DNA from: Nitrospinaceae bacterium
GTDB taxonomy: Bacteria; Nitrospinota; Nitrospinia; Nitrospinales; Nitrospinaceae
Reading direction: 5' to 3'
DNA: 64,000 nt
Assembly (NCBI GenBank): GCA_965223665.1
Contig: OZ245011.1
Coordinates: 2,176,001 to 2,240,000, forward strand
Shown here: in pieces, positions 1 through 19,712 of the stretch
Position numbering within the stretch: the stretch's first letter is position 1
Layout of the letters: the number at the start of each line of letters is the position of its first letter
Made by a program: the position numbers and the translations under genes
Notes under the pieces: model-generated
The model's database searches: none
Told to the model about the DNA's origin: nothing
What the model saw: only the letters and a program-made list of their open reading frames with translations

Positions 1-1
1 C

Positions 2-2293
2 GATGCGCTCTCTTGCGATCACCGCTCCCGAAGGATCTTTCACCGGTTTTAAAGTTCGATCGCTGGAAAACTTTTCCAGGAACATCCGACCCAGGTTTTC
101 CCGTGTAATCAGAATTCCCTTCCTCTTCAATTCCCTTCGCATCGCCCCCAGGGTCGGTCCCGGCAGAGAATCAATATCTCGGACTCTCACCTTTTTGTCA
201 TCCACCCAAACATAAGCCAATGGTTTCTGTTCTTCATCTAACTCGGAATAAAATTTGCCGGGCCCTATATGGTGCAACCCCTCCAAATGCACCCGATCGT
301 TCAGTAAACTTTCCGCAAAAAATCTCTGGTCGCTTTCCGTAAACTTTGGACCCGCTTTTCTTTTGATACGGGCAAACTCTTTTTGCAAAGTATGCTTCGC
401 AGTATCAATCGATTCTTTAGGAACCAGGGAAATTAAAGGAACGGTTTCAAGGGAGTGTTCAAACATCTCATTGAAAGCATTTGGATCGACTGCGTTAATA
501 ATCTGAGTCCATTCATTATAATTTTTTTCATTCAATTGAGATTTCACCCAGTCATTCAGTTGAGATTCTGTATAGTTATACTCCGATTGAATTGCAAGAG
601 GCACAATAGTCTTCATCATATGGGCAAACCCAACCTCCTGATAATTGTCCCCAATGTCTTCCTTTTCAAGCCTCCTTGCAATTGCCTGCACCAGATTGAT
701 TTTCTTTTGATACTGCTCCTTCACTCTTTGTCGATCCGCAACATTTTGCAGCTGACCCGGATTCTAGATCAGCCGATGGTCTTCCTGCATTCCATTTAAA
801 AATTCTGAAAGGACCGGGTCAAATTTATTGTATTGATGAACACCGGAGCCGAAGTACAGGGAAAACTTATTCTGCAGATTCGGGTTATCCGACGTGGCCA
901 AATCCATCAAAGGCTTATAAGCGTTTGCCTCCTTTTGCAGTTTGAGTAACAACTCATCTCTTTTCCGGTTCGCATTGTTTTGCTCAGAAGTTCCCCCTGC
1001 CGGAACAGCTCCCTGTGTAAAATCCTCCGGGTTGATTTCCGTCGACAGTGAAACCGGTTGGCCTCGGTCCACGGCCAATTCAGCATGACCGGTAGCTTCA
1101 GGGGAAAGCGGGGGTTGTGTACCTTTCAACCGGAACTCGATAATTTCTTCCAAAGCCTCTTGGGTTTCTTTACTGACGAGAGGCCATTCCGATCGCTTTT
1201 TCAAATCGGTCAACGAGGGAACTACCGGGCTTTCGGCAGCAAATTGAAACAAGGATTCCTCATTCTCGTATTTGGCGGTATATTCTTTTAACGTGTTTGT
1301 GTATTGTTGGTGATCCCTTAACTTTTCAGTCATCTTCCGTTCTTACGGATCGTCAATATTCCGGAGAGCTTCCTGTTGTTCTTCCTCCGTCAGGGACTCC
1401 AGCGCTGCCACATTGTGCTGGGCTTTATTCATCACCACCTGCTCCCGGATTCTCGCTTCGAGTGGTTCCGTATCGTTCGTTTTAAATTCTTTTTTATGCG
1501 CGGTAAAATATTCCTGCGCTTCTTCAGGTTGTTCGGATTTCAACATACTTTCAATCACCGTCAGGTTCACCCGCTCCAACACTTTTCCCTTTTCCGCAGC
1601 GACCCGTTCATCGCTCAATCCCATCGAAACCTGCAACATTTCAATGGAGCGGTTGATGACCTCAATTTCATCTTCGATCACTTGAGAATCTAAAGGATTT
1701 TTTCGAATCGATTCCAGAGAGGTGCGCGCCGTGTTCTGGTGATTTTGAATTACAGACCGTTTCCATTGCACTTCTTCATAGTCCCGCATTCCATCCAACA
1801 ACCGGGAAATTTTCTTTTCCAGAATCGGTTGGTATTCTTCGCGCAAATACTGCGGCATCTCGGCAAAACCTTTTCGTAGAGCCTGGAAATTTTCCGAGGA
1901 CGAATCCAACTGATACGTTTCCAACAGTTCCGGATCCGGGTCTGCAAAGTCTACGGGTGTTCCATCGGAAGGCTGATCCAACAAAGTTATAAATCTTTGA
2001 AACGCGTGTGCGAACCCGAAACTCTTTTCACCTTTTAACGACGCCATGCCCTCACGCACCTCACCCGCGGCCCCGGTGAGCGCTTTCTCCATTTTCATGA
2101 TCGATTGAGTATCACGCCGCTGTCGCTGCACATCCATGAACACCGCCGCTTCGCCCAGGGTGTTGCTGAGCGCATCCAGGTTACGCACTTTCGCTCCGCC
2201 AACCAGTTCCGGAGTCACATTCAATCGCAACTCCCCGCCCCCTAACGACTGCGGCTGTATTGTCGGATTATTAAGATGAGGTATTTTTGGCAT
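2..2293 (-). pseudogene. Phage internal virion/ejection-like protein (>760 codons, runs off the left edge), interrupted by two in-frame stops
   Basis: ORFs 1343..2302 and 764..1333 and an open frame 763..2 are all in one frame. TAA at 1343-1345 reads ...NIDDP*ERKMTEK and TAG at 764-766 reads ...HRLI*NPGQLQ. The MPKIP start (ATG 2293) and helical, charged composition resemble podovirus internal virion proteins (inference from context). Confidence 0.6.
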
Positions 2294-2325
2294 TAAGGTC
2301 ACCTGAGTTGAAAGTTTTATTCATT

Positions 2326-4452
2326 TTATTTTTTACTTTGAGTATTGGGTTTACTTTTTCCTTGAGAAGATCGAAACTCGTCTAATGAAATTTTCCCAAC
2401 CGGATTACTCGGATTAAATTCAACAGCATCGATTAATTTTCCATCCTCGAGGAAATAAAATACATAATCCTCAAGTGATATCTCTACTCGCGTTCCCTGC
2501 TTTAAATTATCTAGTTCCTCGGAAAGACCAGGAAGAAAGTTATCCAATTTTTTCTTTGCAGTTCCATTTTCTCTAATATAATTTTTAAACCGATCTCCTT
2601 CTATTGAAACCGTTCCCATCTCATTTTTTTCGCCCAAATCAGAAATAAATTCTTTGAATTTTTCGGGATACTTTTCTCTCGCTTTTGAATTTCTGATTAT
2701 TAAAAGTAAGGTGATCTGAAAGTTATTAGAGTTTATCTTTTTTAATCTTTGGCTGGCCGTTTCTGACTTTGAGCCTGTTATTGAGGGAGTATTTGATGGA
2801 TTTGCAGCGTCCCGTTGTATTTTTTCTACTTGTTTTTTTAATTGGCCTTTGAGAGGAACCGTAACAGGTGCCGTGGTCACTCCTTTTTTAAAGCCTTTCT
2901 TTGCCGCTTTTATCGCACGTATCAACAAATCATTAACATTTTTTTCAGACGAGAACGAAGTTCCTCTCTTTGCCAGAGTTCCATCCTCCTCAGCTCCTAA
3001 AATGATTCCCAAATCTTCCGCCCCGGCGGTTAATAGTTCATTCACCGTAGTTTTTTCGGTTCCTTCCAGGGTTTCCATTGCAATGTTTTTGAGTAATGTA
3101 CGTGCTTTGCGTCCCTTATTAGAGGCTAAATAAGTTTTTAATTCTTCTAAGAGTACATTTTTGGTGGCCTCTCCGATGCGTTTTGAAGCCACTCCCCCGG
3201 GAATCAAATCAAACCCTGTCATGAGAAAGGCCATCCCCTCCGCCACCTCTTTCGCCACATCTCGTTTAATGCCTCCCATTATCAAATCGACTACGAGGAT
3301 GCCGCGTTGCATTTTCCAGTTATCTCTGGCACTGACCACCTTGTAAGTAATTCCCGCTGCGGTAAGACCCGCAGGTAAGGCCAATGGCCCCGTCTCCGCA
3401 GCTGCGAATGCGCCAATCGCAAATCCCGCTCCTACCTGTTGGTCTATTCGAAGCCATTGCTGTCCCCAATCAATGAACGTACTTATTCCTAAATTAGCCA
3501 GACTGTCCGGGCCTTGGTTAAAAGCAATATGATTATTGAGGTTTTCTACTTCTTTTTTTATTTTTATCAACTCTTCTTCAGAAATATCACCCTCAAAAAA
3601 TCTGTTCCCAATTTCCGATTTTTTAAAATTTAGAGACGATACCTCGTTAGCCTTTTTAGCCAAGTCCCAAAAGGCTTCCATTCCGGATAAATGTTTTAGT
3701 TCCTCCAGGGAAAGAGAGTTTGGCGGCAAGCTTTTATAAAATTCTTTAGTAAGTTGAAATAATTTCAATATGTGTGTCGTTTCTAATTCTTCATATTTTT
3801 GTTTCGCCATTTCCGGAAGGCTCAAAACTTTAGACAATTTCCACTTTGTCCTACGCTGATATTTTTCTACATTCCTGACATATTTTTCAGCGTCTTCCTC
3901 GGACAGTTGGGGTTCCCATTTTTTTACCAAGGAGCGGATTTTATCTAATCTTTCCTGATCTGACTCTTTCCTACCCTCTAACCACGGGGACAGAAACTCA
4001 AGAAGCGGATCGTTATTATTCTGTTTTTCTGAAGCACCTTCAAGGAGACCGTTCGGCTCTTCTTTTTCTCCTGATAAATTCCCTGCAGAAGCGGAACTGG
4101 AACTTTCGCTAGTCATTGCGCCCTGTCCCGCCTGGGCCAGCAGGGTGCCTGCAGAAGGATCGGGCGCAGGGTCGGTTTCGCTGCTAGATGCCGGGTTTTC
4201 CTCGGTGAAGTTTGCCGGATCTGTCAAACCCTCTTCATCCCCTCCGCCTAAGAAATTAGAGGATTGGGAATTCTCCGGGTTTACCAGCGATGCCAGTTGA
4301 TTTGGATTCTCTTCGGATTCCAGCGAAGAATCGGAGGTGTCCAATTTCGACTCACTAACTCCGGCTTTCTGAGACGATGCCTTTCCTATGACCTTCCCGG
4401 ATGATGTGGGGTTTGCAGTTTTTATAGAATCCACCATAGAGCTTATACTCAT
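2326..4452 (-). CDS. Large phage-like protein, putative internal virion/ejection protein
   Basis: 708-aa ORF directly downstream of terL. Low-complexity Ser/Glu/Pro N-terminus and a Gly/Ala hydrophobic stretch (VGAGFAIGAFAAAETGPLALPAGLTAAG), as in ejection proteins. Confidence 0.55.
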   Translation of the reverse strand: MSISSMVDSIKTANPTSSGKVIGKASSQKAGVSESKLDTSDSSLESEENPNQLASLVNPENSQSSNFLGGGDEEGLTDPANFTEENPASSSETDPAPDPSAGTLLAQAGQGAMTSESSSSASAGNLSGEKEEPNGLLEGASEKQNNNDPLLEFLSPWLEGRKESDQERLDKIRSLVKKWEPQLSEEDAEKYVRNVEKYQRRTKWKLSKVLSLPEMAKQKYEELETTHILKLFQLTKEFYKSLPPNSLSLEELKHLSGMEAFWDLAKKANEVSSLNFKKSEIGNRFFEGDISEEELIKIKKEVENLNNHIAFNQGPDSLANLGISTFIDWGQQWLRIDQQVGAGFAIGAFAAAETGPLALPAGLTAAGITYKVVSARDNWKMQRGILVVDLIMGGIKRDVAKEVAEGMAFLMTGFDLIPGGVASKRIGEATKNVLLEELKTYLASNKGRKARTLLKNIAMETLEGTEKTTVNELLTAGAEDLGIILGAEEDGTLAKRGTSFSSEKNVNDLLIRAIKAAKKGFKKGVTTAPVTVPLKGQLKKQVEKIQRDAANPSNTPSITGSKSETASQRLKKINSNNFQITLLLIIRNSKAREKYPEKFKEFISDLGEKNEMGTVSIEGDRFKNYIRENGTAKKKLDNFLPGLSEELDNLKQGTRVEISLEDYVFYFLEDGKLIDAVEFNPSNPVGKISLDEFRSSQGKSKPNTQSKK

Positions 4453-4648: not shown

Positions 4649-6139
4649 TTAACTTTGAAAAATCTTTCTATTTTTTAATGCGTTGTAGTTTCGGCGTTCG
4701 TTTTGGGAGCCGGCGGTTCCAAAGGCGGACTTTTTAAACGCTACCGGATAGGCAAAGGTGAGTGCCAACGCATCGCCACGATTCGGCGAAGCCAGCCCGC
4801 GTTCCTTCATCTGCTCTTTACTTTCCAGTTGAATTTTTCCATCGGGTCTTGGTACGGTTTCGGGTCCGATTAAATCCTGATACAACACATCATCTTTCGG
4901 AATTGCCCCGCCCTCCTGCAGCCATTTCTTAACACCGCCCCACATTTCGGCCCGCTTGTTTAAAAACCCTGCATCGTTCGCCTTCTCCCCAAACCATACC
5001 AACTGCCAGTTGCGCTGCATGGTTCTGCCGGCGCTCACTATACCTGTCCCATAACCGGCATCGACAAATACGGCATCGGCTTGAAGCTCGTCTTCCAACC
5101 GGGCAATGAGGTTGGCCACTTGAATATCGTTGTCGTTTTTGGGAATGGTCCGCAGTATTTTAAAATATAATCCCTGCCGCATGGCGATGACCAGTTCATC
5201 GTCGCCACCCCAGGCGGGATCGCAGGCAATAATCTTCGGCGCATAATTGTATTGCTCCGGTTTTAGATGCTTGCCCAGTGCCGCGTCCACCCACTCTGTT
5301 GAAATAAACTGCCTGGCCGAAACTGCGGGAAACATGCCGCGCACGCGGACTTTAACGAAATCCGAATCCTCTCCGTAATCGTCAATCCATTTTTGAATTT
5401 TGGCTTTGTTGGTGATGGCCACCTGTCGCGAGTCGATTTGATAACTTTTCCAACGGTGGCGAAAGCGTCGCCAGCATTCGCGGAAGCGCCCGGTGTTGCG
5501 AGTGGGATTTCCAAACGCGGCCCAGATCATTTCGGTATCGCTGTCGGTGAGCGCGCCTTCGGACACCTCCCAAATTGCATCGGGAATGGCCGAGCCTTCA
5601 TCAAAGATGAGAAGAATCCGTTTGCCTTTATTGTGCAAGCCGGCAAACGCCTCGCTCCGTTTCTCCGACCAGGGAATAATATCCATGCGCCAGGTCTTGG
5701 CGTGATCAGGATCCACCGAATGATAACTGGTCGCTTCCAACTGGAAGAAACTTTTGTAAGCACTGAGGCGATGCCACTTTTCCAACTCCGCCCAGGTTTT
5801 GGTCTTCAATTGATTCTCTGTATTCGCGGTGACCACGCCGCGAGTGTCCACTTTGGTGGTCATGCCCCAGTCGATGACCCACGCCACCAGTGCAGATTTC
5901 CCGACACCATGTCCCGAGGCGACAGCAATTTGGATCGCTTCACCGGGAGTGAGCAACCCGTCGCGGATTTCTTTCAGCACTTGAATTTGCCACGGTTCGG
6001 GTCCGGTGTGATCTTTCAGTTCGCCTTCACCCCACGGGTAGGCAAACAAAACGTACGCGTAAGGGTCATGTTCGAACTCGGCGATGGCATCGATGAGTTG
6101 ATCGAGCGTTTCCAGTTCCTGTTCAATCACTGCTGGCAT
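4649..6139 (-). CDS. terL: Phage terminase large subunit
   Basis: Walker A VASGHGVGKS, Walker B LLIFDE, coupling motif GNPTR, nuclease motifs ACDPAWGGDD and SPNRGDALAL. Start taken at ATG 6139 (MPAVIEQ), which overlaps the terS end. Confidence 0.93.
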   Translation of the reverse strand: MPAVIEQELETLDQLIDAIAEFEHDPYAYVLFAYPWGEGELKDHTGPEPWQIQVLKEIRDGLLTPGEAIQIAVASGHGVGKSALVAWVIDWGMTTKVDTRGVVTANTENQLKTKTWAELEKWHRLSAYKSFFQLEATSYHSVDPDHAKTWRMDIIPWSEKRSEAFAGLHNKGKRILLIFDEGSAIPDAIWEVSEGALTDSDTEMIWAAFGNPTRNTGRFRECWRRFRHRWKSYQIDSRQVAITNKAKIQKWIDDYGEDSDFVKVRVRGMFPAVSARQFISTEWVDAALGKHLKPEQYNYAPKIIACDPAWGGDDELVIAMRQGLYFKILRTIPKNDNDIQVANLIARLEDELQADAVFVDAGYGTGIVSAGRTMQRNWQLVWFGEKANDAGFLNKRAEMWGGVKKWLQEGGAIPKDDVLYQDLIGPETVPRPDGKIQLESKEQMKERGLASPNRGDALALTFAYPVAFKKSAFGTAGSQNERRNYNALKNRKIFQS

Positions 6140-6647
6140 CTTTTGCTTTCTGCAAACGTTCGGCGATGCGGTCGGCAAGGCCGTGTTTAAAATCGACTTC
6201 GTGCTTTTGCACAAACATTCCCAGGTGGTCTGCCAGAATTTTTAAGGAACGAATTTTATCGTGAAGCTTGAACTTGATGGTGCTGCCTTTGTCGTTCAAG
6301 GTGGCGTTGATTTCAGCGACAGCGGCCATTTGTTCGCGGGACAGTTTATCTTTAGCAATCATCGTCGCTTCATGCGAGTTCCAGTCTAAGTAGTCCCCAA
6401 CATTGGCAAACGCGACGTTGACCAATTCATCGAGAACGCGATCCTGTGTGATCTCCGTTCGCTGCGACAATTTGGCCTTGCCTTTTTGAATCGCTTTCTG
6501 AATTTCCGGCAATGCCATAAGCTTCCCCACGTTGGGTCCGGCAAACTTTTTGGCGTATCCGGCGCGGATGTAGGCTTGCGTGGCATTTAAATCCACCAGG
6601 TACTCTTCCACAAACCGCTCCTGCTTTAACGATAATTTTTTAGCCAC
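6123..6647 (-). CDS. terS: Phage terminase small subunit
   Basis: N-terminus LSLKQERFVEEYLVDLNATQAYIRAGY is typical of Terminase_2; KLHDK motif; immediately upstream of terL. Confidence 0.92.
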   Translation of the reverse strand: MAKKLSLKQERFVEEYLVDLNATQAYIRAGYAKKFAGPNVGKLMALPEIQKAIQKGKAKLSQRTEITQDRVLDELVNVAFANVGDYLDWNSHEATMIAKDKLSREQMAAVAEINATLNDKGSTIKFKLHDKIRSLKILADHLGMFVQKHEVDFKHGLADRIAERLQKAKDASSD

Positions 6648-6699
6648 TGCTTTAACGTGAAATTGATGTGATATAATATTTAGTTATGAGACGGATCTT
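6637..6699. repeat. Divergent promoter/junction block, copy 1 (copies at ~8707-8769 and ~10617-10679)
   Basis: TTTTTAGCCACTGCTTTAACGTGAAATTGATGTGATATAATATTTrGTTATGAGACGGATCTT occurs three times, at offsets of 2070 and 1910 bp. Confidence 0.95.
6669..6677 (+). promoter_or_regulatory. Extended -10 promoter (TGnTATAAT) 8 nt before the ATG of the first secreted paralog
   Basis: TGATATAAT at 6669-6677 and ATG at 6686, with no Shine-Dalgarno. The same geometry occurs before 8756 and 10666, and as TGATAAAAT before 7199. Confidence 0.6.
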
Positions 6700-7165
6700 G
6701 ATTTTATTGATAGTTTTCGGCTTACTTATGAGTGGGCCACAAATCGTAAACGCTGCCGACCAGAATTACATTATTGAAAACTGCGATCGCGAGTACCTTT
6801 GGACGGAAATTTTGAAGGATATTCGTTGGCGCGCACTGGAAGAAGCTAAGTTTATTGAGGAACACATTCAACCTACCCCAAACCGTCCAAAACTTACAGA
6901 AAAGGACTTCCGGGACATCGATAAATTGGACAAAAAAATCCGTTGGTACGCCTCCGAATGTATTTTGCTGATGAAAGAGATCAATGAATTTATGAGTGCT
7001 ATTCATTCTAAAAAACCCAATATGGGTTCTGAACTGGCATTTGAAGTTGATGGTACTTTAAACAAGTTCGACATCCCTTTTTTTAGACATTTTGATCGAG
7101 AAAATGATTTTAAACCTTTTTTCGAATTTAAGTATTATCTTTATAAGCCTTCCGGAAAGCTTTAA
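6686..7165 (+). CDS. Secreted/periplasmic protein, putative SLT inhibitor (immunity paralog I1, orphan)
   Basis: Sec-type signal peptide (MRRILILLIVFGLLMSGPQIVNA), conserved ENC..W and SECILLMKEIN motifs, about 82% identical by manual count to 10666..11145. Confidence 0.8.
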   Translation: MRRILILLIVFGLLMSGPQIVNAADQNYIIENCDREYLWTEILKDIRWRALEEAKFIEEHIQPTPNRPKLTEKDFRDIDKLDKKIRWYASECILLMKEINEFMSAIHSKKPNMGSELAFEVDGTLNKFDIPFFRHFDRENDFKPFFEFKYYLYKPSGKL

Positions 7166-7198
7166 GATATTCTGCTACCTGTGATAAAATGCTTTGTT

Positions 7199-7687
7199 AT
7201 GAGACAAATCTTTTCGACAATTATGTGTTTATTTTTTTTAGTTGTCCTACCTCACATTGTCCACGCCGGAGATGGAGGTTATGATATTGAGAACTGCGAT
7301 CGGGGAAAAATTTGGCCATTAATTCTATCTGACATGAAACGCCTGGACCCTAAAACCGCAAATTATATTGATCAAAATATTCAACCCTCGAAAAAACGGC
7401 CCACCTTAACGGTGGCGGACTACAAAGAAATCGATAAATTTCCGGAACCCTATCGCAAAGATATTTCTGAATGCATTCTGCTGATGAAGGAAATCAATCA
7501 ACTGATCCTGACAATCCATAAGAAAGATACCGAAATATCAATAATAACTAGTCTTGATATTGAACAGTTCCTTGGCATGCATGAAATTCCATTTATTTAT
7601 TTATGGAATTCCCAAAAAAAACTCATCACCTTCACTTTTGATTTCACAACGGTGAAAACTTTATTGCTAGGTCGCGAAAGTTACTAG
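7199..7687 (+). CDS. Secreted protein, putative immunity paralog I2 (partner of SLT 7644..8681)
   Basis: Signal peptide MRQIFSTIMCLFFLVVLPHIVHA, ENC and SECILLMKEIN motifs, 44-bp 3' overlap with the convergent SLT gene. ATG 7199 is preferred over GTG 7181, which lies in the -10 element. Confidence 0.8.
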   Translation: MRQIFSTIMCLFFLVVLPHIVHAGDGGYDIENCDRGKIWPLILSDMKRLDPKTANYIDQNIQPSKKRPTLTVADYKEIDKFPEPYRKDISECILLMKEINQLILTIHKKDTEISIITSLDIEQFLGMHEIPFIYLWNSQKKLITFTFDFTTVKTLLLGRESY

Positions 7688-8681
7688 GCACCGGTTTCCC
7701 TTGCCTCACCAAATTTAAAACATACCTGAATTGCCTTAAATACTTTCTTGTTTGAAGCGGCATTTTCTTTTCTACCTTAGCAATTATCTCTTCATCTCCT
7801 TGGTTTCCTTTTATTAGGACATTTGTACGCGCCCTATTAATTGCTTCTATTCCTGCGTTATACTCCATGGCAACAAACCCTAAATAATCATCTGTGCCCT
7901 TCCACCTTCGGGCCATGTCTTTAAAAATGAGCCATTTGGCCGCTCGGACATTAGACGCAGGATCCTTAGTGATTTGAGTTTGCGTCAAATTTAACATAGC
8001 TGATTTTGTATTTACTATATCTCCCGCCGTTTTTGGCATTATCTGCATTAATTGTCTTGCCCCTTTAGAACTTGGTTGGTTATTTTTTCCAACATCGGTT
8101 TCTAAATGCGCAATAGTGATCAATATATCTCCCACATCTTTTTCAGAAAAGTCCTTGGGAATCTCCATTCCTGATTCGCCTGCAATGACACGAATCGATT
8201 TGTAGGTATTAGGAGCATAGTTTTTTACTCCTTTTTTTATATTGTTCTTAACAGTGGATGAGCTATCAAAAACTAAATTTGGTGTGTAATATTTAGAAGG
8301 ATCATATTTCGTTGCAGTCAATTTTTTAGGACTCTGGCCTTTCGGTGCGTTGACGAGGTTTTGCTGCATAGCCCAGTCCATTTGAGCGTTACCGCTGCCG
8401 AGGGCACTGGGACTTAATGGATGCGGTTTTGTATGATCCTCGGTGTTGTACAAAATACCGGGATCAATGGTCCTCTCCGATGGTGGCAGACTTCCCTCTG
8501 TGGTTAAACCTCCATTCAATAATGTTGGTCTTCGATTTCTTCGTCTTCCTCTTTGGGTGCCAACCCGGCGGTCATCCTTTTTTCCGGAGCCATCTCCGTA
8601 AAGAATTTCTGCCATCTCTTCCCATCTTTCCCGACTCGGGAGATTGGAACTACCATATCCGCTTAAATTAATTCTTCCCAT
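7644..8681 (-). CDS. Lytic transglycosylase (SLT domain) with conserved N-terminal leader, variant T1
   Basis: Catalytic Glu in AHLET, QLMQIMP, DPASNVRA, EYNAG, QTRKYL motifs. First ~115 aa nearly identical to T2 and T3. Confidence 0.88.
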   Translation of the reverse strand: MGRINLSGYGSSNLPSRERWEEMAEILYGDGSGKKDDRRVGTQRGRRRNRRPTLLNGGLTTEGSLPPSERTIDPGILYNTEDHTKPHPLSPSALGSGNAQMDWAMQQNLVNAPKGQSPKKLTATKYDPSKYYTPNLVFDSSSTVKNNIKKGVKNYAPNTYKSIRVIAGESGMEIPKDFSEKDVGDILITIAHLETDVGKNNQPSSKGARQLMQIMPKTAGDIVNTKSAMLNLTQTQITKDPASNVRAAKWLIFKDMARRWKGTDDYLGFVAMEYNAGIEAINRARTNVLIKGNQGDEEIIAKVEKKMPLQTRKYLRQFRYVLNLVRQGKPVPSNFRDLAIKFSPL

Positions 8682-8755
8682 TTTTTATCCTTGTTCTAAA
8701 AATAACTTTTTAGCCACTGCTTTAACGTGAAATTGATGTGATATAATATTTGGTT

Positions 8756-9229
8756 ATGAGACGGATCTTAATTATATTTGTAGTTGTTGGCTTATTTATA
8801 AGTGGACCACAAATCGGAAACGCTGCCGACCAGAATTACATTATTGAAAACTGCGACCGCTCTATATTGTGGCCAGCCATATTGAAAGACTTAGAAACTC
8901 GTGATCCTTCGGCATCCGATTTTGTTAAAAACAATGTTAAAATTCCAAAAGAAAAACCCAGATTGACAGCCGATGAATTAAAGCAAATTCAATATTTTGA
9001 TCCGAAATTACATTGGCATGTTTCGGAGTGCATATTGTTGATGAAAGAAATTAATCAATTTGTTTCTGCAGTACATAAGTTTGGATATTCAAGAAGTTGG
9101 GATGTATCAATGGAAATCGAAGGCACATTAAATATTTATGATATCCCTTTTATTTCCATATGGGATAAAACCAAAAAATTTGTATTCTTTGTCAATTTTT
9201 CAAAATTAAGGCCACATAAAAACTTTTAA
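8756..9229 (+). CDS. Secreted protein, putative immunity paralog I3 (orphan)
   Basis: Signal peptide and first ~34 codons essentially identical to I5, divergent afterwards; ENC and SECILL motifs. Confidence 0.8.
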   Translation: MRRILIIFVVVGLFISGPQIGNAADQNYIIENCDRSILWPAILKDLETRDPSASDFVKNNVKIPKEKPRLTADELKQIQYFDPKLHWHVSECILLMKEINQFVSAVHKFGYSRSWDVSMEIEGTLNIYDIPFISIWDKTKKFVFFVNFSKLRPHKNF

Positions 9230-9246
9230 AAATTTTCTCAATCATA

Positions 9247-9726
9247 ATGAAAACCAAACTAACTATAATTTCGTTAATTCTTATCTGTTTCTTATTTTCT
9301 GGAACCCGGTTTGGGAATGCGGCGAATCGAAATTATCGCGTTGAAAATTGCAGCCGGGCCCAACTGTGGCCGGAAATACTGAAAGATTTGAAATGGCGTG
9401 ATCCGGAAACCGCTGAGTTCATCGATAAAAATATCAAGCCTGTCCAAGAACGCCCTCAACTGACCGATGAGGACTATCAACAAATTGAACGGTTTGATAA
9501 AAGGATTCATTATTTTCTATCCGAGTGCATGCTTTTGATTAAAGAAGTAAATGTGTTGATTAAGGAGGTCCATAAAATTGATCCCAATAAAACTTGGGCG
9601 GTTGGAGATGAAATTAGAGGAACCCTAGACAAGTATGAAATTCCTTTTGATTACAAATATACAAAAAAAGATGAATTTATTTTTTATGTCATTTTTGCGC
9701 CTTTAACGCCGGGCGAAACCTTTTAA
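9247..9726 (+). CDS. Secreted protein, putative immunity paralog I4 (partner of SLT 9689..10591)
   Basis: Signal peptide ending FGNA, ENC..W and SECMLLIKEVN motifs, 38-bp 3' overlap with T2. Confidence 0.8.
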   Translation: MKTKLTIISLILICFLFSGTRFGNAANRNYRVENCSRAQLWPEILKDLKWRDPETAEFIDKNIKPVQERPQLTDEDYQQIERFDKRIHYFLSECMLLIKEVNVLIKEVHKIDPNKTWAVGDEIRGTLDKYEIPFDYKYTKKDEFIFYVIFAPLTPGETF

Positions 9727-10591
9727 GATAATTCTGTGTTTCCTGCGGCATAAACTGTATTACCTTATCTATTTTTTGATTTGCTCCAACTCCAAACTTA
9801 TTTACCGCTTTTCTCCTTGCCTCTTTCACCGCATTTGGGCTTGAATTATACTCAATGATCGAAAATTCTAATCGGTTATCCACTCTTGGATAGCGTCTCC
9901 AAATATCACTAAACAACAACCACTTGGTTGCCCGAATGTTTGAAGCTGAGTCATTTAAAATTTGTTGTTGCGATAAATTTAATCCGCTTTGATTGGCAAT
10001 TCCCTGGGCAGTTCCCGGCATGATCTGACCCAAGCCTTTGGCTCCCATTGGACTGGTTTGACCGGGCACAAAACTGGATTCTAATTCCACGATGGTTTTA
10101 ATAATTCGAGCTGCGTCTCTATTAGTAAACCCTGTGGGAATTTTTACATCCGGTTCACTCGTTATTATTTCAATAGATTTCTTAACCTCCTTCACCGTAC
10201 TGAATTTATAATTGGTATTAAATTTTCCCTGCTGACCGGGTTGCTTGCTTTGGCCTTTCGGGGCGTTGACCAGGTTCTGTTGAATAGCCCAGTCCATTTG
10301 AGCATTGCCACTGCCGAGGGCACTGGTGGGAAGAGGTTTATCCGGGTTCTCTGTGTTGTACAAAATACTTGGATCAATCGTCCTCTCTGAGGCTGGAAGA
10401 CTTTCCTGTGCGGTTAAACCTCCATTCAATAACATTGGTCTTCGATTTCTTCGTCTTCCTCTTTGGGTGCCAAGCCGGCGGTCATCCTTTTTTCCGGAGC
10501 CATCTCCGTAAAGAATTTCTGCCATCTCTTCCCATCTTTCCCGACTCGGGAGATTGGAACTACCATATTCACTTAAATTAATTCTTCCCAT
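9689..10591 (-). CDS. Lytic transglycosylase (SLT domain) with conserved leader, variant T2
   Basis: ELESSF (catalytic Glu), SPMGAKGLGQIMPGTA, EYNS, PQETQNYL motifs. Confidence 0.9.
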   Translation of the reverse strand: MGRINLSEYGSSNLPSRERWEEMAEILYGDGSGKKDDRRLGTQRGRRRNRRPMLLNGGLTAQESLPASERTIDPSILYNTENPDKPLPTSALGSGNAQMDWAIQQNLVNAPKGQSKQPGQQGKFNTNYKFSTVKEVKKSIEIITSEPDVKIPTGFTNRDAARIIKTIVELESSFVPGQTSPMGAKGLGQIMPGTAQGIANQSGLNLSQQQILNDSASNIRATKWLLFSDIWRRYPRVDNRLEFSIIEYNSSPNAVKEARRKAVNKFGVGANQKIDKVIQFMPQETQNYLKRFRPALKAQK

Positions 10592-10665
10592 TTTCTATCC
10601 TTGTTCTAAAAATAACTTTTTAGCCACTGCTTTAACGTGAAATTGATGTGATATAATATTTGGTT

Positions 10666-11145
10666 ATGAGACGGATCTTAATTATATTTGTAGTTGTTGG
10701 CTTATTTATAAGTGGACCACAAATCGGAAACGCTGCCGACCAGAATTACATTATTGAAAACTGCGATCGCGAGTATCTTTGGGCTGAAATTTTGAAAGAC
10801 ATTCGCTGGCGCGCTCCGGAGGATGCTAAGTTTATTGAGGAACATATTCAACCTACCAAAAATCATCCAAAGCTGACAGAAAAGGACTACCGGGACATCG
10901 ATAAAATGGACAAAGCAATTCGTTGGTACGCCTCCGAATGCATTTTGCTGATGAAAGAAATCAATGAATTTTTGGGTGCTATTCATTCTAAGAACTCTGA
11001 TATTGCTATGGGTTTAACCTTTGAGATTGATGGAACCCTAAACAAATTTGATATACCGTTTTTCAGGCACTTTAATCGAGAAAATGAATTTAAACCTTTT
11101 TTTGAATTCATGTATTATCTTTATAAGCCTTCCGGAAAGCTTTGA
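10666..11145 (+). CDS. Secreted protein, putative immunity paralog I5 (partner of SLT 11108..12037)
   Basis: Signal peptide, family motifs, 38-bp 3' overlap with T3. Confidence 0.8.
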   Translation: MRRILIIFVVVGLFISGPQIGNAADQNYIIENCDREYLWAEILKDIRWRAPEDAKFIEEHIQPTKNHPKLTEKDYRDIDKMDKAIRWYASECILLMKEINEFLGAIHSKNSDIAMGLTFEIDGTLNKFDIPFFRHFNRENEFKPFFEFMYYLYKPSGKL

Positions 11146-12037
11146 GATATTCTGCCGGTGATAAATCGTTCTTATTCGGTCGTGTATTCATGGATTTCAG
11201 CTTCAAGACTTCCTTAATCTTGTTTCCTGCTCCCTGACCAAATGATTTTTCAGCTTCCTTTCTCGCTTTTTTTACATCATTCGCCCCTATTTTGTACTCC
11301 AATACCAGAAACCCGATTCGATCATCCGCCTTATCATAGCGTTTCCAGCCATCAAAAAATAAAACCTGTCCGGCAATGATATTAGCTTCATTTTTATCCA
11401 AAATATCGGTTTTGGTAAAACCCGTATTTAGATTTTGGGCAATTAAACCTGCTGTCCCATCAAGTATCTGCATCAATCCGGAAGCTGTGGAGTTTGGATT
11501 TTTTACTTTTGGCCTAAAACTGGATTCAATTTGAATTAACGATTTTGTGATTCGACTCACCTCTTGAACAGGAACCGGATAACCAAATTTCTTATGGGTT
11601 TTAACGGTAATTAAATCCACCAAATGTTTGACCTCTTTCACCGTACCAAATTTATAATTGGTATTAAATTTTCCTTGCTGACCGGGTTGCTTGCTTTGGC
11701 CTTTCGGTGCGTTGACGATTGCCTGCTGCATAGCCCAGTCCATTTGCGGGTTACCGCTGCCGAGGGCGCTGGGGGGAAGAGGTTTATCCGGGTTCTCTGT
11801 GTTGTACAAAATACTTGGATCAATCGTCCTCTCTGAGGCTGGAAGACTTTCCTGTGCGGTTAAACCTCCATTCAATAATGTTGGTCTCCGATTTCTTCGT
11901 CTTCCTTTTTTAGTGCCAACCCGGCGGTCATCCTTTTTTCCGGAGTCATCTCCGTAAAGAATTTCTGCCATCTCTTCCCATCTTTCCCGACTCGGTGGAT
12001 TGGAACTACCATATTCACTTAAATTAATTCTTCCCAT
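11108..12037 (-). CDS. Lytic transglycosylase (SLT domain) with conserved leader, variant T3
   Basis: QIESSFRP (catalytic Glu), STASGLMQI, ANIIAG, EYKIG motifs; RBS AAGGATAG upstream. Confidence 0.9.
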   Translation of the reverse strand: MGRINLSEYGSSNPPSRERWEEMAEILYGDDSGKKDDRRVGTKKGRRRNRRPTLLNGGLTAQESLPASERTIDPSILYNTENPDKPLPPSALGSGNPQMDWAMQQAIVNAPKGQSKQPGQQGKFNTNYKFGTVKEVKHLVDLITVKTHKKFGYPVPVQEVSRITKSLIQIESSFRPKVKNPNSTASGLMQILDGTAGLIAQNLNTGFTKTDILDKNEANIIAGQVLFFDGWKRYDKADDRIGFLVLEYKIGANDVKKARKEAEKSFGQGAGNKIKEVLKLKSMNTRPNKNDLSPAEYLKAFRKAYKDNT

Positions 12038-12280
12038 TTTCTATCCTTTAATTAATTCCCGGAATGTGAATCACCCCAGCCCGGCCCCCGGCCGGCAGGA
12101 ACATTCTTTTGCGATGATTTAATTTCAATGCTATATCTTCACAAAGTTTTCGAGGATTATAGTTGCCCCCAATCGCTAGATTGGAAAAGGGGAGCGCATT
12201 GGCTTCCCATTTTTATATTTGCTTCTAAAAGTAAAATTTGAGAACAGTTTCTGTCGATTCAATGTTCGCCACCGATCAGC

Positions 12281-12397
12281 GCAAATGAAAGTTGCCGCCA
12301 CGGCGAGTGAGTGCCCCCAATCGCTAGATTGGAAAAGAGGGAGCACATCGGCTTCCATAGAAACTCAACGCAAATGAAAGTTGCCGCCACGGCGAGT
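12281..12397. repeat. Short direct repeat within a cluster of dispersed palindromic elements
   Basis: GCAAATGAAAGTTGCCGCCACGGCGAGT at 12281 and 12370; CCCCCAATCGCTAGATTGGAAAAG at ~12166 and ~12314. Confidence 0.85.
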
Positions 12398-12657
12398 GGT
12401 GAATCACCCTGACCCTCTTTAGGAAAGAGGGAGCACATCGTTTTCCCCTGCGTCATATTCTCCAAAAGACAAAATCTGAGTTTGAAAATTTTCTGAAGAT
12501 TCCCTTCTATATATAGAACAAACTCACTTCCCTTTCTTAGATCACTGATCGGTATTCCGCCAGTTCAGGAAGCGGGCCCAAAGGCGGCGCAGCCAGCGTT
12601 TCAGTTTTTGCCAAAATCCGGGAGGGTCTTCTTGGGGTTTTCTATTTTGCCAGGGCA

Positions 12658-14775
12658 TCAGTTCATTCCATTTTCAAAGAGGAGTAATAAGTCTATGTCT
12701 GTATTCCAGAACGGTCCCGGTACGGTCGGGCCGCTTAAAACCATCACTGCGTTCGGCGTCACCACCAGCGGAACGTTGCCCACCAATACAAAGCTGGATT
12801 GGCCGGCGCTGTAATCCATTGGTGAATTGGCACTCAAAACCGCGGCCACGTCTCCATCCACCCAGGGATGTTTGTTTTGCTCCAAAACTGAACTGACCGC
12901 CAAAGCCAACGTGATATCTCCCGCAATTTCCGGGTGACGGTTCATTAACATTCCGGCCTGAGGTGTCAATTCCAGATCCACATTGCCGGCAATCGAATAC
13001 GCGCCGAACGCACTCATTCCGGATTGTGGGGTGAGGGTGACGGAAACGGTTCCGTCGATGGAGGGATGGATTTGAACGTCCATCACCGATGCGGCCTCAA
13101 ACTGGCTGGTCACGTTGCCATCAATCGAAGGATGAATATTAAAATCGAAAATTCCTTCGGCAGACAGGGTTAAGGGAATATTGCCGCTCAACGACGGATG
13201 AATGTTTTTCACAAATGTGGACAGCGGTGTGATGTCCAACGGAACCGATCCGGTCAAATTCAAATGTTGATTGTATTGCTCGATTCCATCCGGGGAGAGA
13301 GTGACCATTACATTGCCGACGACGGAAAAATCAAAATGCGCGGTCATGATCGCCGCGGGTGTAACGTCGGCAGTGACGTTGCCGGTAATGGAGTAACTTG
13401 CCGCAGGAGTGCCGACGGTAATGGATGGAGTTTGCGTGATCGTATTTAAAATTTGGAAAGACTCTTGTCGGGCTAGACGGAACTCAATGACATCAGTATC
13501 CACTGTGTCTGCATCGACGATCTTAATGACAAACTCAACTTCGGTTTCGTCATTGCCGGCAAAGGTGATTTTCTTACCCTGCCAATCGTTCTCCATCACG
13601 TATCCGGTGGCAAACGTGCCCGAACCTAAACGCTGAGTACTGTTTTCGAGATCCGTGATATTCGAACTCAATACGAGTTGGGCAACCGAAGAAGCATTGG
13701 TCACGCCACCCCAGGAACCTGAATTTAATCGTCGTTGCAATGAAAGCGCATCGACAGCACCATTAGCCGTTGCACACTTCACCAGGAAGCGCAACCGAAC
13801 TGTGGTTTCCGCTTGGAGAGTAATGTCTGTGTTCAATGCGGCTTTAAATGTAGCTGCCGACTCCGAGCCGTCGTCATTAATAAAACGAAATGAATGTTGA
13901 TCCAATACTGGTTCGTCAACGGTTATGCGTGGGGTTTGGGTGTAGGCATCGAGGGCAGTGGACCCGTCGTAAACACGAAAATCGATGGTGTCTAAATCCG
14001 CGACTTCCTGAGGTCGAATCCAAAAACAGAATTCCACTTCGGTGTGTTCGCTAGCGGCTAAAGTAATCGCGGCGGCTTGTCCGTCAGATTCGTCAAACTC
14101 ACCGGCTTTAAACGTTCCGGTTCCTCCAAGTTGGTCGGTGGTTGCAGTGCCATTCGAAATATTAGGTGAACCAATAGACCGAGCAATCGAGGAAGCACCG
14201 TCAACGCGAGTGTAAGTTCCACTGGAGTGACTGCGATACAAAGTAGGCGTGAACGTAATTCCGGAACCGCCCGTTTCCTGAACGACAAACCGTAAGCGCA
14301 CCGGGACATCTGTCGAATGGTTGATGCTGGTATTTTCTGTTGCCAGCCAGGTTGCGGTGGTTTCGCTTCCATCGGTATCTCTAAATCGGAACCCGGTCTG
14401 ATCCAGTGTAGCGGATACAGCGTTGACCGTAATAGTTTGGCTGGAACTGTTGGTGGCGGCACCGCCGTTGTTGTTATCGATAACGCGGATGCGAACCGCA
14501 TAAGTCCCGGCGGTGTTGCAGGTAATGGTCTGGGTGTGCTCCAGCTCATCCCCTAAATTGGAGAGCGTGTTGGTGGGCGTGGTGAGTGCCGCGCCACTGG
14601 AGGGAATGTTCACCCAGGTGCTGGTGCCCTGGTCCCACTGCCAGATCATGTTGTAATCCCCACCGCCGTGATTGGACAGAGTGACCTGCCCTCCCATGGT
14701 AAACGTTTGGCCTTCGTTTAGATTCGGGTCGCTAGTGGGTTGAGTTAAGCTGACACTGGTTACGGTTTTAGCCAT
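12658..14775 (-). CDS. Large beta-rich phage fibre/structural-like protein with internal repeats
   Basis: Thr/Ser/Gly-rich. Two ~165-aa homologous domains (LDQTGFRFRDTDGSETTAT / LDQHSFRFINDDGSESAAT) and about ten ~22-aa C-terminal repeats of the form SIxGNVxLxLTP. Confidence 0.6.
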   Translation of the reverse strand: MAKTVTSVSLTQPTSDPNLNEGQTFTMGGQVTLSNHGGGDYNMIWQWDQGTSTWVNIPSSGAALTTPTNTLSNLGDELEHTQTITCNTAGTYAVRIRVIDNNNGGAATNSSSQTITVNAVSATLDQTGFRFRDTDGSETTATWLATENTSINHSTDVPVRLRFVVQETGGSGITFTPTLYRSHSSGTYTRVDGASSIARSIGSPNISNGTATTDQLGGTGTFKAGEFDESDGQAAAITLAASEHTEVEFCFWIRPQEVADLDTIDFRVYDGSTALDAYTQTPRITVDEPVLDQHSFRFINDDGSESAATFKAALNTDITLQAETTVRLRFLVKCATANGAVDALSLQRRLNSGSWGGVTNASSVAQLVLSSNITDLENSTQRLGSGTFATGYVMENDWQGKKITFAGNDETEVEFVIKIVDADTVDTDVIEFRLARQESFQILNTITQTPSITVGTPAASYSITGNVTADVTPAAIMTAHFDFSVVGNVMVTLSPDGIEQYNQHLNLTGSVPLDITPLSTFVKNIHPSLSGNIPLTLSAEGIFDFNIHPSIDGNVTSQFEAASVMDVQIHPSIDGTVSVTLTPQSGMSAFGAYSIAGNVDLELTPQAGMLMNRHPEIAGDITLALAVSSVLEQNKHPWVDGDVAAVLSANSPMDYSAGQSSFVLVGNVPLVVTPNAVMVLSGPTVPGPFWNTDIDLLLLFENGMN

Positions 14776-17870: not shown

Positions 17871-19712
17871 TCATTCTTTTGATTTAGGTTTTTGGCGGCG
17901 GATGTGTTCGAGGTTTTTTTGGATGGCCAGGACGTTGGCGTGGTCTTTGCCAAAGGCGGTTTTGAAAATGGCCAACGCGTTTTCAAAATATTCCGTGGCG
18001 ATTTTAGAGTTGCCTTTCATGTACCAGGCGCCGGCCAGGGTGCTCCAATGAAACCCCATCTTCGGATGACTTTTTCCATAAGTGACTCTATCGATGTCCA
18101 TTGCCTTTTCATAATACTCGATCGCTTTGTCCTGATCGCCCTTGCTGCTCCAGGCCACTCCCAGATGGTTCCAGCGTGCGGCCAGGTTGGGATGATCTTC
18201 CCCATAAGTTTTAATATCACTGTTCAAAGCTTTTTCTAAATACTCGATGGCTTTGTCAAAATTCTCTTGTGCACCGTAGGCCGATCCCAGGTTGTTCCAG
18301 TCGGCCGCCACATGCGGATGCTCTTCGCCAAAGTTTTTGAGATCGCTCGCCAGAGCTTTTTCATAATACTCGATGGCATTTTTGTAATTGCCTTTATCCT
18401 GCCAGGCGGTGCCCAGGTTGTTCCAACTGGTGGCCACTCGCGGATGTTTTTCTCCAAACGTTTTCTGGTTGACGGCTAACGCTTTTTCGAAAAACTCAAT
18501 GGCCTTATCGTACTTTTCTTTTTTGGCCCACACTTCACCAAGATGCGTCCACCTTATGGCCAGCTTGGGATGGTCCGGATCATACGTTTTCAGATCACTC
18601 GCCAACGCTTTCTCGTAATACGGAATGGCTTTGTCGTAGTTGCCTTTTCTCTCCCAGGTCATTCCGAGGTTGTTCAGGTTGGTGGCGATGCGTGGATGAT
18701 CTTCGCCATAGTTTTTGATATTGCTGGTCAGGGATTTATTAAAAAACTGGATCGCCTGTTCCAGGTTGCCCTTGTCTCTCCAGGCTTCTCCCAGGTTATT
18801 CCACGCCATGGCGATGAGAGGATGATCGGCACTGTGAGATTTTTTTAAATTTCTAACGGACCTGCCGTAATACTGAATGGCCTTATCGTAGTTACCGAGT
18901 TTTTTAAAAAGAAAACCGTTGGCGTTGGCATACAACGCATTGTCCTGGGCCAGTTGGGCCGCACTTTCCAAATGCTGCAGCGCCTGTGCGTATCTGGCCT
19001 GCTCGCTGTAAATTTTTCCCAGTCGGTAATGAACTAAAGCCTCATCGTCTTTACTGGGGAGTCGTGTTGGATGTCCCACCAATTCCTGCAACAGCTTTTC
19101 TGCTTCGGAGGTATCGCCTTTTTTCAAGGCCTGCCCGGCCAGTTTCAATTGTTCGGATGAAAACTGTTTTTCGAATTTCTGGAGATCGGTGTGAGTGTCT
19201 TTCAATAGCTGAATGTGATCTTCCAGGGAATTTTGCAAATCGACTTGTTTGCTTTGAATGGCGTGCATTTGCAATTGCAGGACTTTCATTCCTGCAAGGC
19301 TTTTACCGCGCGCCTCATTGATCTCAGCGCGAATTTCGGATTCGCGTTTTTTGAGAGTCGCCAGGTGCTGTCCCAAGGTGATTTCATAGACAATTTTTTT
19401 TTCTTCCGCGGGTGGGGTTCCATCAATGGGGTTGCCGCGAACCGGCTTGCCGGATCCTTGAGCCCAGGAAAGACTAACGGAACTTAAGGAGATCATTATA
19501 AAAAGGAGAAGAGTAATCAGAAAATATAAAACCCCTGGAGGTGAATCACCCCGACCGCGGGGAAGGCCCCGCCACCTGCATTTCATCTTCGATGGGTTCC
19601 ATCGATTTCTTAAATCCATCGACTTTTGGAAATCCTTTTTGCCTCCAACCGCTAGGTTGGGAAAGAGGGCGAACATGGGTCTCCGATTATTTTCTGTATT
19701 TGATTGTTCCAT
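17871..19712 (-). CDS. Tetratricopeptide repeat protein (42-aa kinesin-light-chain-type TPRs), probably exported
   Basis: About eight HPxxAxxWNNLGxxWxxKGxYDKAIxYYEKAL repeats. The true start is probably downstream (ATG 19586 or 19496) because the 5' extension runs through a repeat element. Confidence 0.88.
   Translation of the reverse strand: MEQSNTENNRRPMFALFPNLAVGGKKDFQKSMDLRNRWNPSKMKCRWRGLPRGRGDSPPGVLYFLITLLLFIMISLSSVSLSWAQGSGKPVRGNPIDGTPPAEEKKIVYEITLGQHLATLKKRESEIRAEINEARGKSLAGMKVLQLQMHAIQSKQVDLQNSLEDHIQLLKDTHTDLQKFEKQFSSEQLKLAGQALKKGDTSEAEKLLQELVGHPTRLPSKDDEALVHYRLGKIYSEQARYAQALQHLESAAQLAQDNALYANANGFLFKKLGNYDKAIQYYGRSVRNLKKSHSADHPLIAMAWNNLGEAWRDKGNLEQAIQFFNKSLTSNIKNYGEDHPRIATNLNNLGMTWERKGNYDKAIPYYEKALASDLKTYDPDHPKLAIRWTHLGEVWAKKEKYDKAIEFFEKALAVNQKTFGEKHPRVATSWNNLGTAWQDKGNYKNAIEYYEKALASDLKNFGEEHPHVAADWNNLGSAYGAQENFDKAIEYLEKALNSDIKTYGEDHPNLAARWNHLGVAWSSKGDQDKAIEYYEKAMDIDRVTYGKSHPKMGFHWSTLAGAWYMKGNSKIATEYFENALAIFKTAFGKDHANVLAIQKNLEHIRRQKPKSKE

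Follow-up and report, generated by a model that had tools for sequence, protein, structure and literature searches.

Convergently overlapping genes for SLT-domain proteins and candidate periplasmic binders in a podovirus-like region of a Nitrospinaceae bacterium

Introduction

Enzyme-inhibitor pairs in phage conflict are already known in kind. In polymorphic toxin systems, the immunity gene stands directly downstream of the toxin gene and is co-oriented with it. The locus described here is laid out in another way. It lies in a stretch of 64,000 nucleotides (nt) from a marine Nitrospinaceae bacterium (OZ245011.1, positions 2,176,001-2,240,000), hereafter called the window, and comprises three minus-strand genes for SLT-domain proteins (T1-T3) and five plus-strand genes for small proteins with signal-peptide-like N-termini (I1-I5), three of which each form a convergent, overlapping pair with a T gene. 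Two protein parts of the locus, the N-terminal leader shared by the T proteins and the whole I family, belong to no described family and are new here. According to PMC7677548, T4 Spackle resides in the periplasm, is helical with a disulfide bond, and attaches to the lysozyme gp5 of the virion at a site apart from the catalytic residues, leaving the endolysin unaffected. The same paper describes the Ivy, MliC and Pli inhibitors as built mostly of beta-sheet, with a loop that enters the active site of their target.

The reading favoured here, to which a probability of about one half is given, is that the I proteins are periplasmic, allele-matched binders of virion-borne SLT domains, giving superinfection exclusion in the manner of T4 Spackle while being apparently unrelated to it. 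A literature search at title and abstract level returned no paper on this locus or on any phage-encoded inhibitor acting on a lytic transglycosylase of the virion, and T4 Spackle was the sole phage-encoded inhibitor of a virion wall hydrolase to turn up. Additionally, no dedicated study of Nitrospinota prophages surfaced in one title-level search.

Pairing of I genes with SLT-domain genes

The pairing of I genes with SLT-domain genes is strict. Over the own genome and that of a sister species of the same genus, 26 distinct I loci were counted. Convergence directly on an SLT or SLT-like gene is found at 22 of them, bearing out the co-occurrence that had been expected, and at the other four the I gene leads an I-I tandem. 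The overlap with the partner is exactly 38 nt at 17 loci and 44 nt at two, and three loci face their partner across 44-67 nt. Every T-family gene found has an I.

In the own genome, the I profile gave 14 matches, of which 12 are intact copies and two are fragments of a single broken copy, within C1:2,135,000-2,187,200, where C1 denotes coordinates on the own-genome contig. The initial annotation had confined the array to positions 6637-12050 of the window. This limit did not hold, as seven further I copies with SLT partners lie outside the window, 1-47 kb to the left on the same contig. They face SLT or SLT-like genes, which comprise those for proteins of 893, 1105 and 571 amino acids (aa), two remnants (80 and 159 aa) and one T-like gene with a frameshift. 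The sister species has 14 intact I copies, at syntenic and other sites.

The whole region is podovirus-like, with a portal protein (phrog_332, expectation value (E) 6e-153), a tail protein (phrog_376, E 8e-196) and a 1112-aa protein matching 'internal virion protein'. The I partners of 893-1151 aa adjoin a phrog_6651 hit, a portal and a tail tubular protein. Furthermore, a separate prophage of the sister genome, which carries an integrase and a primase/helicase, has an I gene overlapping the gene for a 453-aa protein with a C-terminal SLT domain, and this protein sits between two internal-virion-protein matches (phrog_418, E 9e-23; phrog_6651, E 4e-43). As the module is also found on proteins of 453-1151 aa in internal-virion-protein blocks, including this integrase-bearing prophage, the evolving unit is the SLT domain together with its I, carried on large virion-type proteins or on the short T leader, and not a feature of the packaging locus as it had first been described.

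In the window, the eight open reading frames (ORFs) stand where they had been placed. I1 (6686..7165, plus strand), an orphan copy whose nearest paralog is I5 (82%), is followed by I2 (ORF 7181..7687, plus), which overlaps T1 (7644..8681, minus; 345 aa) by 44 nt. The second cassette consists of I3 (ORF 8750..9229, plus), also an orphan copy, then I4 (9247..9726, plus), which begins 17 nt past I3, and T2 (9689..10591, minus; 300 aa), overlapped by I4 over 38 nt. In the third, I5 (ORF 10660..11145, plus) overlaps T3 (11108..12037, minus; 309 aa), again over 38 nt. The three tail-to-tail overlaps are those originally reported, and the departure from the co-oriented layout of known systems stands as well, with I converging on its partner and overlapping it by 38-44 nt.

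The cassettes are joined by a repeated DNA block of about 0.5 kb, which consists of the T leader, a 68-nt divergent intergenic region with the putative promoter, and the beginning of the next I gene with its signal peptide. Repeat families of 300 nt and 80 nt, with identities of 83-91%, are found in the array. An inversion switch or shufflon was considered and rejected, because no inverted repeat occurs within 6000-12700. In four short-read runs from one study, the unique array parts 7136-8464 and 8827-10259 were recovered in contigs with no differences, and the contigs stop at the repeated blocks of the array. One of two samples also contained contigs with 90-95% identical variants of I2 and I3 beside the reference form (7280-7725 and 8833-9229), and loose ends at 7604 and 10230 of metagenome contigs run into unrelated sequence. 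These variants and junctions may reflect strain-level cassette variation or another organism.

Properties of the T proteins

T1-T3 are SLT-domain proteins and candidate lytic transglycosylases. All three pass the Pfam SLT profile PF01464, whose curated cut-off is 21.3 bits, with scores of 34.8, 44.6 and 47.8 bits (E 1.3e-8 for T1 and 1.3e-12 for T3). The motifs of family-1 lytic transglycosylases are named E-S, G-L-x-Q and (A/E)-Y-N. The catalytic Glu-Ser motif is kept in each protein (LETD, LESS and IESS), the second motif reads GLGQ, GLMQ and QLMQ, and the third is EYN in T1 and T2 and EYK in T3. Pairwise, the N-termini agree at 74-82 of the first 88 residues, with invariant columns up to S117. 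Overall identity to T1 is 57% for T2 and 48% for T3, the divergence beginning after the leader. The near-identical N-terminus, the divergent SLT domains and the retained glutamate (LET, LES, IES) had all been noticed at the outset and are confirmed.

The leader is 117 aa long and basic, with an isoelectric point (pI) of 9.4-9.6, and in T1 it is encoded at about 8331-8681. In the structural model of T2, residues 1-125 have a predicted local distance difference test score (pLDDT) below 50 and are thus predicted to be disordered. The SLT fold follows at residues 133-298, mostly with pLDDT of at least 80 except for the loop 174-185 (below 50), and the catalytic residue is E171. The top Foldseek rows for this domain were Slt70, Slt, MltC, MltE and MltF, with a probability of 1.00 and E of only 3e-3 to 0.1. 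The T2 SLT domain is 39% identical to that of the 453-aa protein of the sister prophage (E 4e-38), and the N-terminus of the latter has no similarity to the T leader. Leader relatives are confined to the two genomes (11 proteins), and no match was found in Pfam, PHROG or NCBIfam. The SLT domains are strongly basic (pI 9.8-10.1), and the T proteins have neither a signal peptide nor a transmembrane segment.

PHROG families labelled 'endolysin' match the T SLT domains (phrog_669, E 6e-12 for T2). The matched profiles are 700-1946 positions long, so they represent large virion-type proteins. To the left of the window, at C1:2171254-2172187, a fourth T gene of the T3 class (81-82% identical) was seen, with a frameshift near residue 140 and still flanked by two intact I genes.

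Properties of the I proteins

The five I paralogs align over their full length, with 35-82% identity to I1, and the two cysteine motifs ENC and SEC are invariant. In I1 numbering, the two cysteines are C33 and C92. Read by eye, their N-termini show a basic n-region, a hydrophobic stretch and a cut-site motif, (N/H)A followed by A(G), and are therefore regarded as signal-peptide-like, of the cleavable type. The signal peptides and the two invariant cysteines had been proposed on first inspection, and both stand, the signal as a judgement by eye. The mature proteins are about 135 aa long. AlphaFold models I4 as a bundle of helices with a beta-hairpin after it (pLDDT 84.8). Four of the five mature proteins have a pI of 5.3-5.7, and the charges of the mature I proteins and the SLT domains are complementary. 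As the T proteins lack an export signal and the I proteins have a putative one, the two could meet only in the periplasm.

I5 is a mosaic, in which residues 1-38 equal those of I3 and the remainder is I1-like. The closest relative of I3 (94% identity) is found in the sister genome, beside a T class that the own genome lacks, and I3 is for this reason an orphan binder. Orphan I genes had been postulated from the gene order, and they exist.

The family was searched for widely. A profile search of 5.8 billion clusters returned 24 I relatives, all from the two genomes or from three short contigs, and an exhaustive HMMER search of 1.84 billion representatives gave six clusters, all of the same genus (E <1e-56). 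None of 39 further genomes from the family or order had a match, and tblastn found no I relatives among GenBank phages. Pattern searches gave 33 hits in IMG/VR and 266 in JGI metagenomes, of which none was confirmed. No PHROG or NCBIfam family matched. Four I proteins matched no Pfam family at E up to 1, and I4 had one chance-level, unrelated hit. PADLOC gave no credible hit for any of eight proteins, the sole row being Csn2 with I3 (E 0.024). A profile search of PDB sequences produced one chance-level hit (E 0.43), and the ESM Atlas search was blank (best score 0.77). With the I4 model, Foldseek found nothing in PDB or BFVD at E up to 0.001, and the VIA wide search gave generic helical hits (best Z 5.8, root-mean-square deviation 4.1 over 97 residues). 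The failure to recognise either the leader or the I family from sequence is thus matched by the profile and structure searches. Additionally, a rough screen for the same layout covered 30 IMG/VR loci with SLT relatives; convergent ORFs lay at the 3' end in 13 of them, none I-like at its N-terminus by eye, and these look like antisense noise.

Co-variation and the predicted complex

The type of I tracks the type of SLT domain. Over 20 pairs, the distances between mature I proteins correlate with those between their SLT domains (Mantel r 0.81), a value reached in none of 5000 permutations. This co-variation of types is in line with the initial interpretation.

Complex prediction covered one pair, T2 residues 125-300 with mature I4 (residues 27-159). 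I4 is predicted to bind the SLT domain of T2, which had been named as its cognate partner. The interface score ipSAE was 0.84 (0.82, 0.86 and 0.84 in the single runs) versus 0.00 for the best of three controls, a mark that is reached by 58 of 80 solved complexes and by 2 of 110 mismatched pairs. The runs have at least 91% of their contacts in common, and the pLDDT of the partner is at least 85. As I has no relative in PDB, the prediction was not memorised from a similar complex.

On the T2 side, the contacts involve residues 197, 201, 229, 232-236 and 252-253 and the helix 256-271, adjoining the GLGQ and EYN motifs; on the I4 side, they involve residues 46-52, 117-131 and 138-140. The interface is more variable than the rest of the protein in both partners (2.12 vs 1.46 bits in I4, p 0.0009; 2.39 vs 1.95 bits in T2, p 0.002).

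Large partners without the catalytic glutamate

The C-terminal domains of the large I partners show clear homology with the SLT domain of the T proteins (99.2-99.5% probability in hhalign), and they score 16-17.5 bits with the Pfam SLT profile, under its cut-off. Several of them have lost the catalytic residue. The glutamate column holds Leu in the group of 1105, 1111 and 226 aa and Asn or Gly in the 893-aa protein, and the partner pair of 490 and 1151 aa is likewise without Glu at this column. E-S is retained in the partners of 571 and 453 aa. The large partners without the glutamate still keep an I and the 38-nt overlap. Because I is kept next to catalytically dead SLT-like domains, the target would be the entry protein itself and not a toxin; judged from these sequences, blocking of an entry protein fits better than immunity to an enzyme toxin.

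One large partner reaches into the window. The N-terminal two thirds of this virion-type protein occupy positions 1..2302 (minus strand), and its single frame of about 3.3 kb continues leftward to C1:2175009, with the C-terminal SLT-like domain and the I partner just left of the window. Two in-frame stops, TAA and TAG, break it up, and the resulting ORFs have 319, 189 and 571 aa. Its paralogs in the own and sister genomes are single ORFs of 1105-1151 aa. The split form could be a pseudogene, three real genes, or a case of read-through.

Promoter boxes of the I genes

An extended -10 box, TGnTAnnnT, ends exactly 8 nt before the ATG in 20 of the 26 I genes. The variants are TGATATAAT, TGATACAAT, TGATAGAAT, TGGTATAAT and TGATAAAAT, and the ATG that follows opens an M-(R/K)-x-I-L start. 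The position of the box is fixed even where the flanking upstream DNA is unrelated. In the window, it is present at I1, I2, I3 and I5. The putative leaderless-type promoter of I1 has TGATATAAT at 6669..6677 (plus strand), its end 8 nt upstream of the ATG; the same word is matched at 8739..8747 (plus) for I3 and at 10649..10657 (plus) for I5, and TGATAAAAT stands 8 nt upstream of the start of I2. I4 has no box of its own. Across the 4.35-Mb genome, 112 exact copies of TGNTATAAT were counted. The spacing of 8 nt implies that the I transcripts would be leaderless or nearly so, made from their own extended -10 promoters, for which the lambda cI transcript from PRM is a precedent. By the same spacing, the probable starts of I2, I3 and I5 were reset to the ATGs at 7199, 8756 and 10666, so that the ORFs remain as placed in the initial annotation and these three starts do not. 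The promoter claim is based on the extended -10 word and its fixed spacing and not on the generic promoter and terminator scan, which was not above shuffles (13 found vs 15.6 expected, and 7 vs 7.3). All I genes are antisense to the surrounding late genes. Among the sequencing runs that cover the region, no RNA run was listed.

Selection and history of the element

The ratio of nonsynonymous to synonymous divergence (dN/dS) and the synonymous divergence (dS) were taken pairwise between the own and the sister genome. Structural genes overall have a dN/dS of 0.00-0.07 at a dS of 0.35-0.63, as in the portal (0.00; dS 0.35), the terminase subunits (0.04-0.07; dS 0.36-0.44) and a 335-aa protein of major-capsid size (0.04; dS 0.56). 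The values are 0.12-0.24 for the I proteins (dS 0.21-0.69), 0.12-0.29 for the SLT domains (dS 0.23-1.88) and 0.12-0.24 for the T leaders (dS 0.38-0.52). The low dN/dS in phage, I and SLT genes shows the element to be functional.

Eight neighbouring non-structural genes have a dN/dS of 0.03-0.14 at a dS of 0.5-1.15. As their dS is higher, the phage genes would have been shared after the host split, and the phage element was probably exchanged between hosts after the species had separated. The order of the cassettes differs between the two genomes, and the flanking structural genes are collinear.

Neighbouring genes and other observations

Beside the array stands the terminase small subunit gene terS (6123..6647, minus strand), identified as such from the beginning and supported by Pfam Terminase_2 (E 2e-33) and phrog_51 (E 2.5e-36). 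Next to it, a 521-aa gene (4649..6214, minus) resembles annotated phage terminase large subunits, for example one in an Uetakevirus, with 53-55% identity and a match to phrog_5902 (E 7e-67); it has no match among Pfam profiles or PDB sequences. A 708-aa protein (2326..4452, minus) is a paralog of the 1112-aa protein that matches the PHROG 'internal virion protein'.

Upstream of T3, in 12150-12450, a 34-nt word occurs twice (12276-12309 and 12365-12398, 97% identical) within a longer imperfect repeat. This stretch has no Rfam match, and the equivalent spacer of the sister genome is shorter. Downstream of the array, at 17871-22474 (minus), adjacent paralogs of 613, 495 and 312 aa share matches to phrog_7590 and phrog_5208 (function unknown). 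To the left of the window, at C1:2146500-2154600, six plus-strand genes, not phage-like by N-terminal sequence, stand between two sets of structural genes, and this block is missing at the syntenic place of the sister genome. An Rfam scan of window positions 1-26000 gave no match, and no tRNA was found in the window or in three left-hand loci.

Discussion

According to the favoured reading, SLT-domain proteins would be carried within the phage particle and breach the cell wall when a cell is infected. Their carriers would be the large internal-virion or ejection proteins and the short T proteins, with the conserved, disordered, basic leader of the latter serving as a packaging or ejection handle. 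The SLT domain would reach the periplasm from outside with the infecting particle, or at lysis. The I genes would be transcribed independently, antisense to the late genes, from their extended -10 promoters, and because of this transcription of their own from leaderless-type promoters the periplasm of a lysogen would be filled with I proteins. A secreted I would catch the SLT domain that a related phage brings in, and entry would be stopped. Phages may answer by diversifying and stacking SLT alleles, as in T1-T3, which would let them pass lysogens holding only some I types. Lysogens, in turn, may answer by stacking I alleles, orphans included. The repeated block of about 0.5 kb would supply the homology for duplicating and swapping cassettes.

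Several points weigh against this reading. The catalytic E171 of T2 is not among the confident contacts of the model, so that enzyme inhibition does not follow from it. The correlation between I and SLT distances could be produced by physical linkage alone, since overlapping genes are co-inherited, and surface residues vary more than buried ones in any case, which inflates the difference in variability between interface and remainder. Pairwise dN/dS is well under 1 everywhere, with no positive selection at this resolution. The packaging of T into the virion is read from the homology of the SLT domain and from gene orientation, and the leader matches nothing in the databases searched. The promoters are likewise motif matches and not mapped transcription starts. 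Moreover, the region contains broken copies (the frameshifted T, remnants of 80-226 aa and the two in-frame stops), and for this reason part of the locus may be decaying.

A wider version of the reading is offered more tentatively, as possible and somewhat less probable than its core. The temperate podophages of this genus would fight one another at the cell wall, using alleles that match as 'key and lock'. Each virion would carry several interchangeable SLT entry proteins, and the lysogen would secrete a panel of I proteins of a new fold, each clamping one SLT allele. Dead SLT-like ejection domains would be clamped as well, so that the effect would be arrest of ejection and not enzyme inhibition. 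The overlapping pair would be the evolving unit, expressed without a leader and shuffled through the block of T leader and promoter.

The main rival is that the T proteins are cell-wall toxins, carried or released by phage or phage-derived particles, and that I protects the producer and its kin. It has the same molecular core as the favoured reading, I binding SLT in the periplasm, and the pay-off would be bacterial competition. Hence, the predicted binding of I4 to T2 fits it equally, and so do the stacked cassettes with their orphan I genes and the sharp break near residue 117-125 between a conserved leader and a variable enzyme domain. The region is also syntenic in two species, and purifying selection on its structural genes is strong, as in a domesticated particle; however, the lower dS of the phage genes than of their neighbours points to phage exchange and not to pure vertical domestication. 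Many I partners are of structural size and lie in internal-virion-protein blocks, and several lack the catalytic glutamate, hence in these there is no toxin that needs immunity. The leader matches no known trafficking domain, the binder gene converges on its partner and overlaps it instead of following downstream in the same orientation, and a single transglycosylase delivered with a genome would in our assessment be a weak killer. This explanation is therefore considered rather unlikely, if the best of the alternatives. The initial annotation had interpreted the array as toxins or entry enzymes with allele-specific inhibitors, for self-protection or superinfection exclusion; the pairing of SLT with its I binder is upheld, and the toxin-immunity part is weakened by the partners without the catalytic glutamate.

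A quite improbable alternative is that I helps the SLT protein as a periplasmic docking or assembly factor, or that the pairing means nothing at the protein level and stems only from a mobile cassette common to both genes, the 38-nt overlap serving antisense regulation. The constant overlap length at 17 of the 26 loci could indicate coupling at the RNA level, and the uncontacted catalytic residue in the model would suit a helper. However, a helper that the prophage makes in its own host would be of no use for entering naive cells, purifying selection acts on I at the protein level (dN/dS 0.12-0.24), and the confident predicted interface falls on hypervariable residues.

The least probable alternative, that T1-T3 are duplicated endolysins and I tunes lysis, by holding back enzyme that leaks to the periplasm or as a spanin-like partner, can draw on the 'endolysin' labels of the PHROG matches and on T genes that lie next to terS and are co-oriented with the late genes, but the matched profiles, with 700-1946 positions, stand for large virion-type proteins, a disordered basic leader of 117 aa is to our knowledge not an endolysin feature, nothing resembling a holin or spanin gene was seen between the T genes (no systematic search for them was made), the I genes are antisense and multi-copy and have a signal of the cleavable type, not a lipobox or an anchor in the membrane, and I also pairs with virion-type proteins of 453-1151 aa.

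If the favoured reading of I as an excluder of related phages is true, the locus would represent a second, unrelated solution besides Spackle, directed against lytic transglycosylases and with the organisation of a polymorphic toxin locus, and phage entry enzymes would be the object of an allele-by-allele arms race. The predicted new family of SLT binders could be useful as a scaffold for specific lytic transglycosylase inhibitors, and such work is feasible by ordinary expression in E. coli despite the uncultured host. Furthermore, the locus would provide a clear case of conserved convergent overlap and, by motif, leaderless expression of lysogen-protective genes in Nitrospinota.

Comparison with known systems

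Exported binders of peptidoglycan-cleaving enzymes are also found in Ivy, MliC/PliC and PliG as well as PliI, and I is predicted to resemble them in this respect. Unlike them, I is predicted to be helical, has no Pfam match and is phage-borne. The wall-hydrolase effectors of type VI and type IV secretion systems (Tse/Tsi, Tge/Tgi and X-Tfe/X-Tfi) would be alike in that a periplasmic immunity protein neutralises an injected enzyme. In contrast to these, the cassettes are surrounded by phage structural genes, and no secretion-system genes were seen there.

There are several likenesses to T4 Spackle. Spackle is a phage-encoded small exported helical protein with a pair of cysteines, and I, with its signal-like N-terminus, helical model and two invariant cysteines, may be another. 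The target of Spackle is a virion wall hydrolase and not the endolysin, and that of I would be the same. Both Spackle and the modelled I bind beside the catalytic residues, as an acidic partner on a basic enzyme surface. However, Spackle has 75 aa and mature I about 135 aa with a beta-hairpin, and Spackle targets a T4-type lysozyme, whereas the predicted target of I is a family-1 lytic transglycosylase domain. Spackle was absent from the Foldseek and VIA rows for the I4 model, with no match in sequence or fold. Its homologs are described as highly conserved (PMC7677548), whereas I is hypervariable at the interface. Additionally, I differs in its tail-to-tail overlap with the target gene, its multiple alleles and stacked arrays, and its place in a prophage instead of a virulent phage.

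The polymorphic toxins (CdiA-CT/CdiI of contact-dependent inhibition (CDI), Rhs, and phage MuF-toxin fusions) share with the array a constant N-terminus, a swappable enzymatic C-terminus and an adjacent binder, as well as orphan binders and repeats that permit cassette exchange. The array differs from them in that the binder gene runs convergently into its partner, with 38-44 nt in common, the leader is not a known delivery domain, and the module is also carried on structural virion proteins, some of them catalytically dead. The array is regarded as a member of neither the Spackle type nor the polymorphic toxins: as read here, it works like the first and is laid out like the second.

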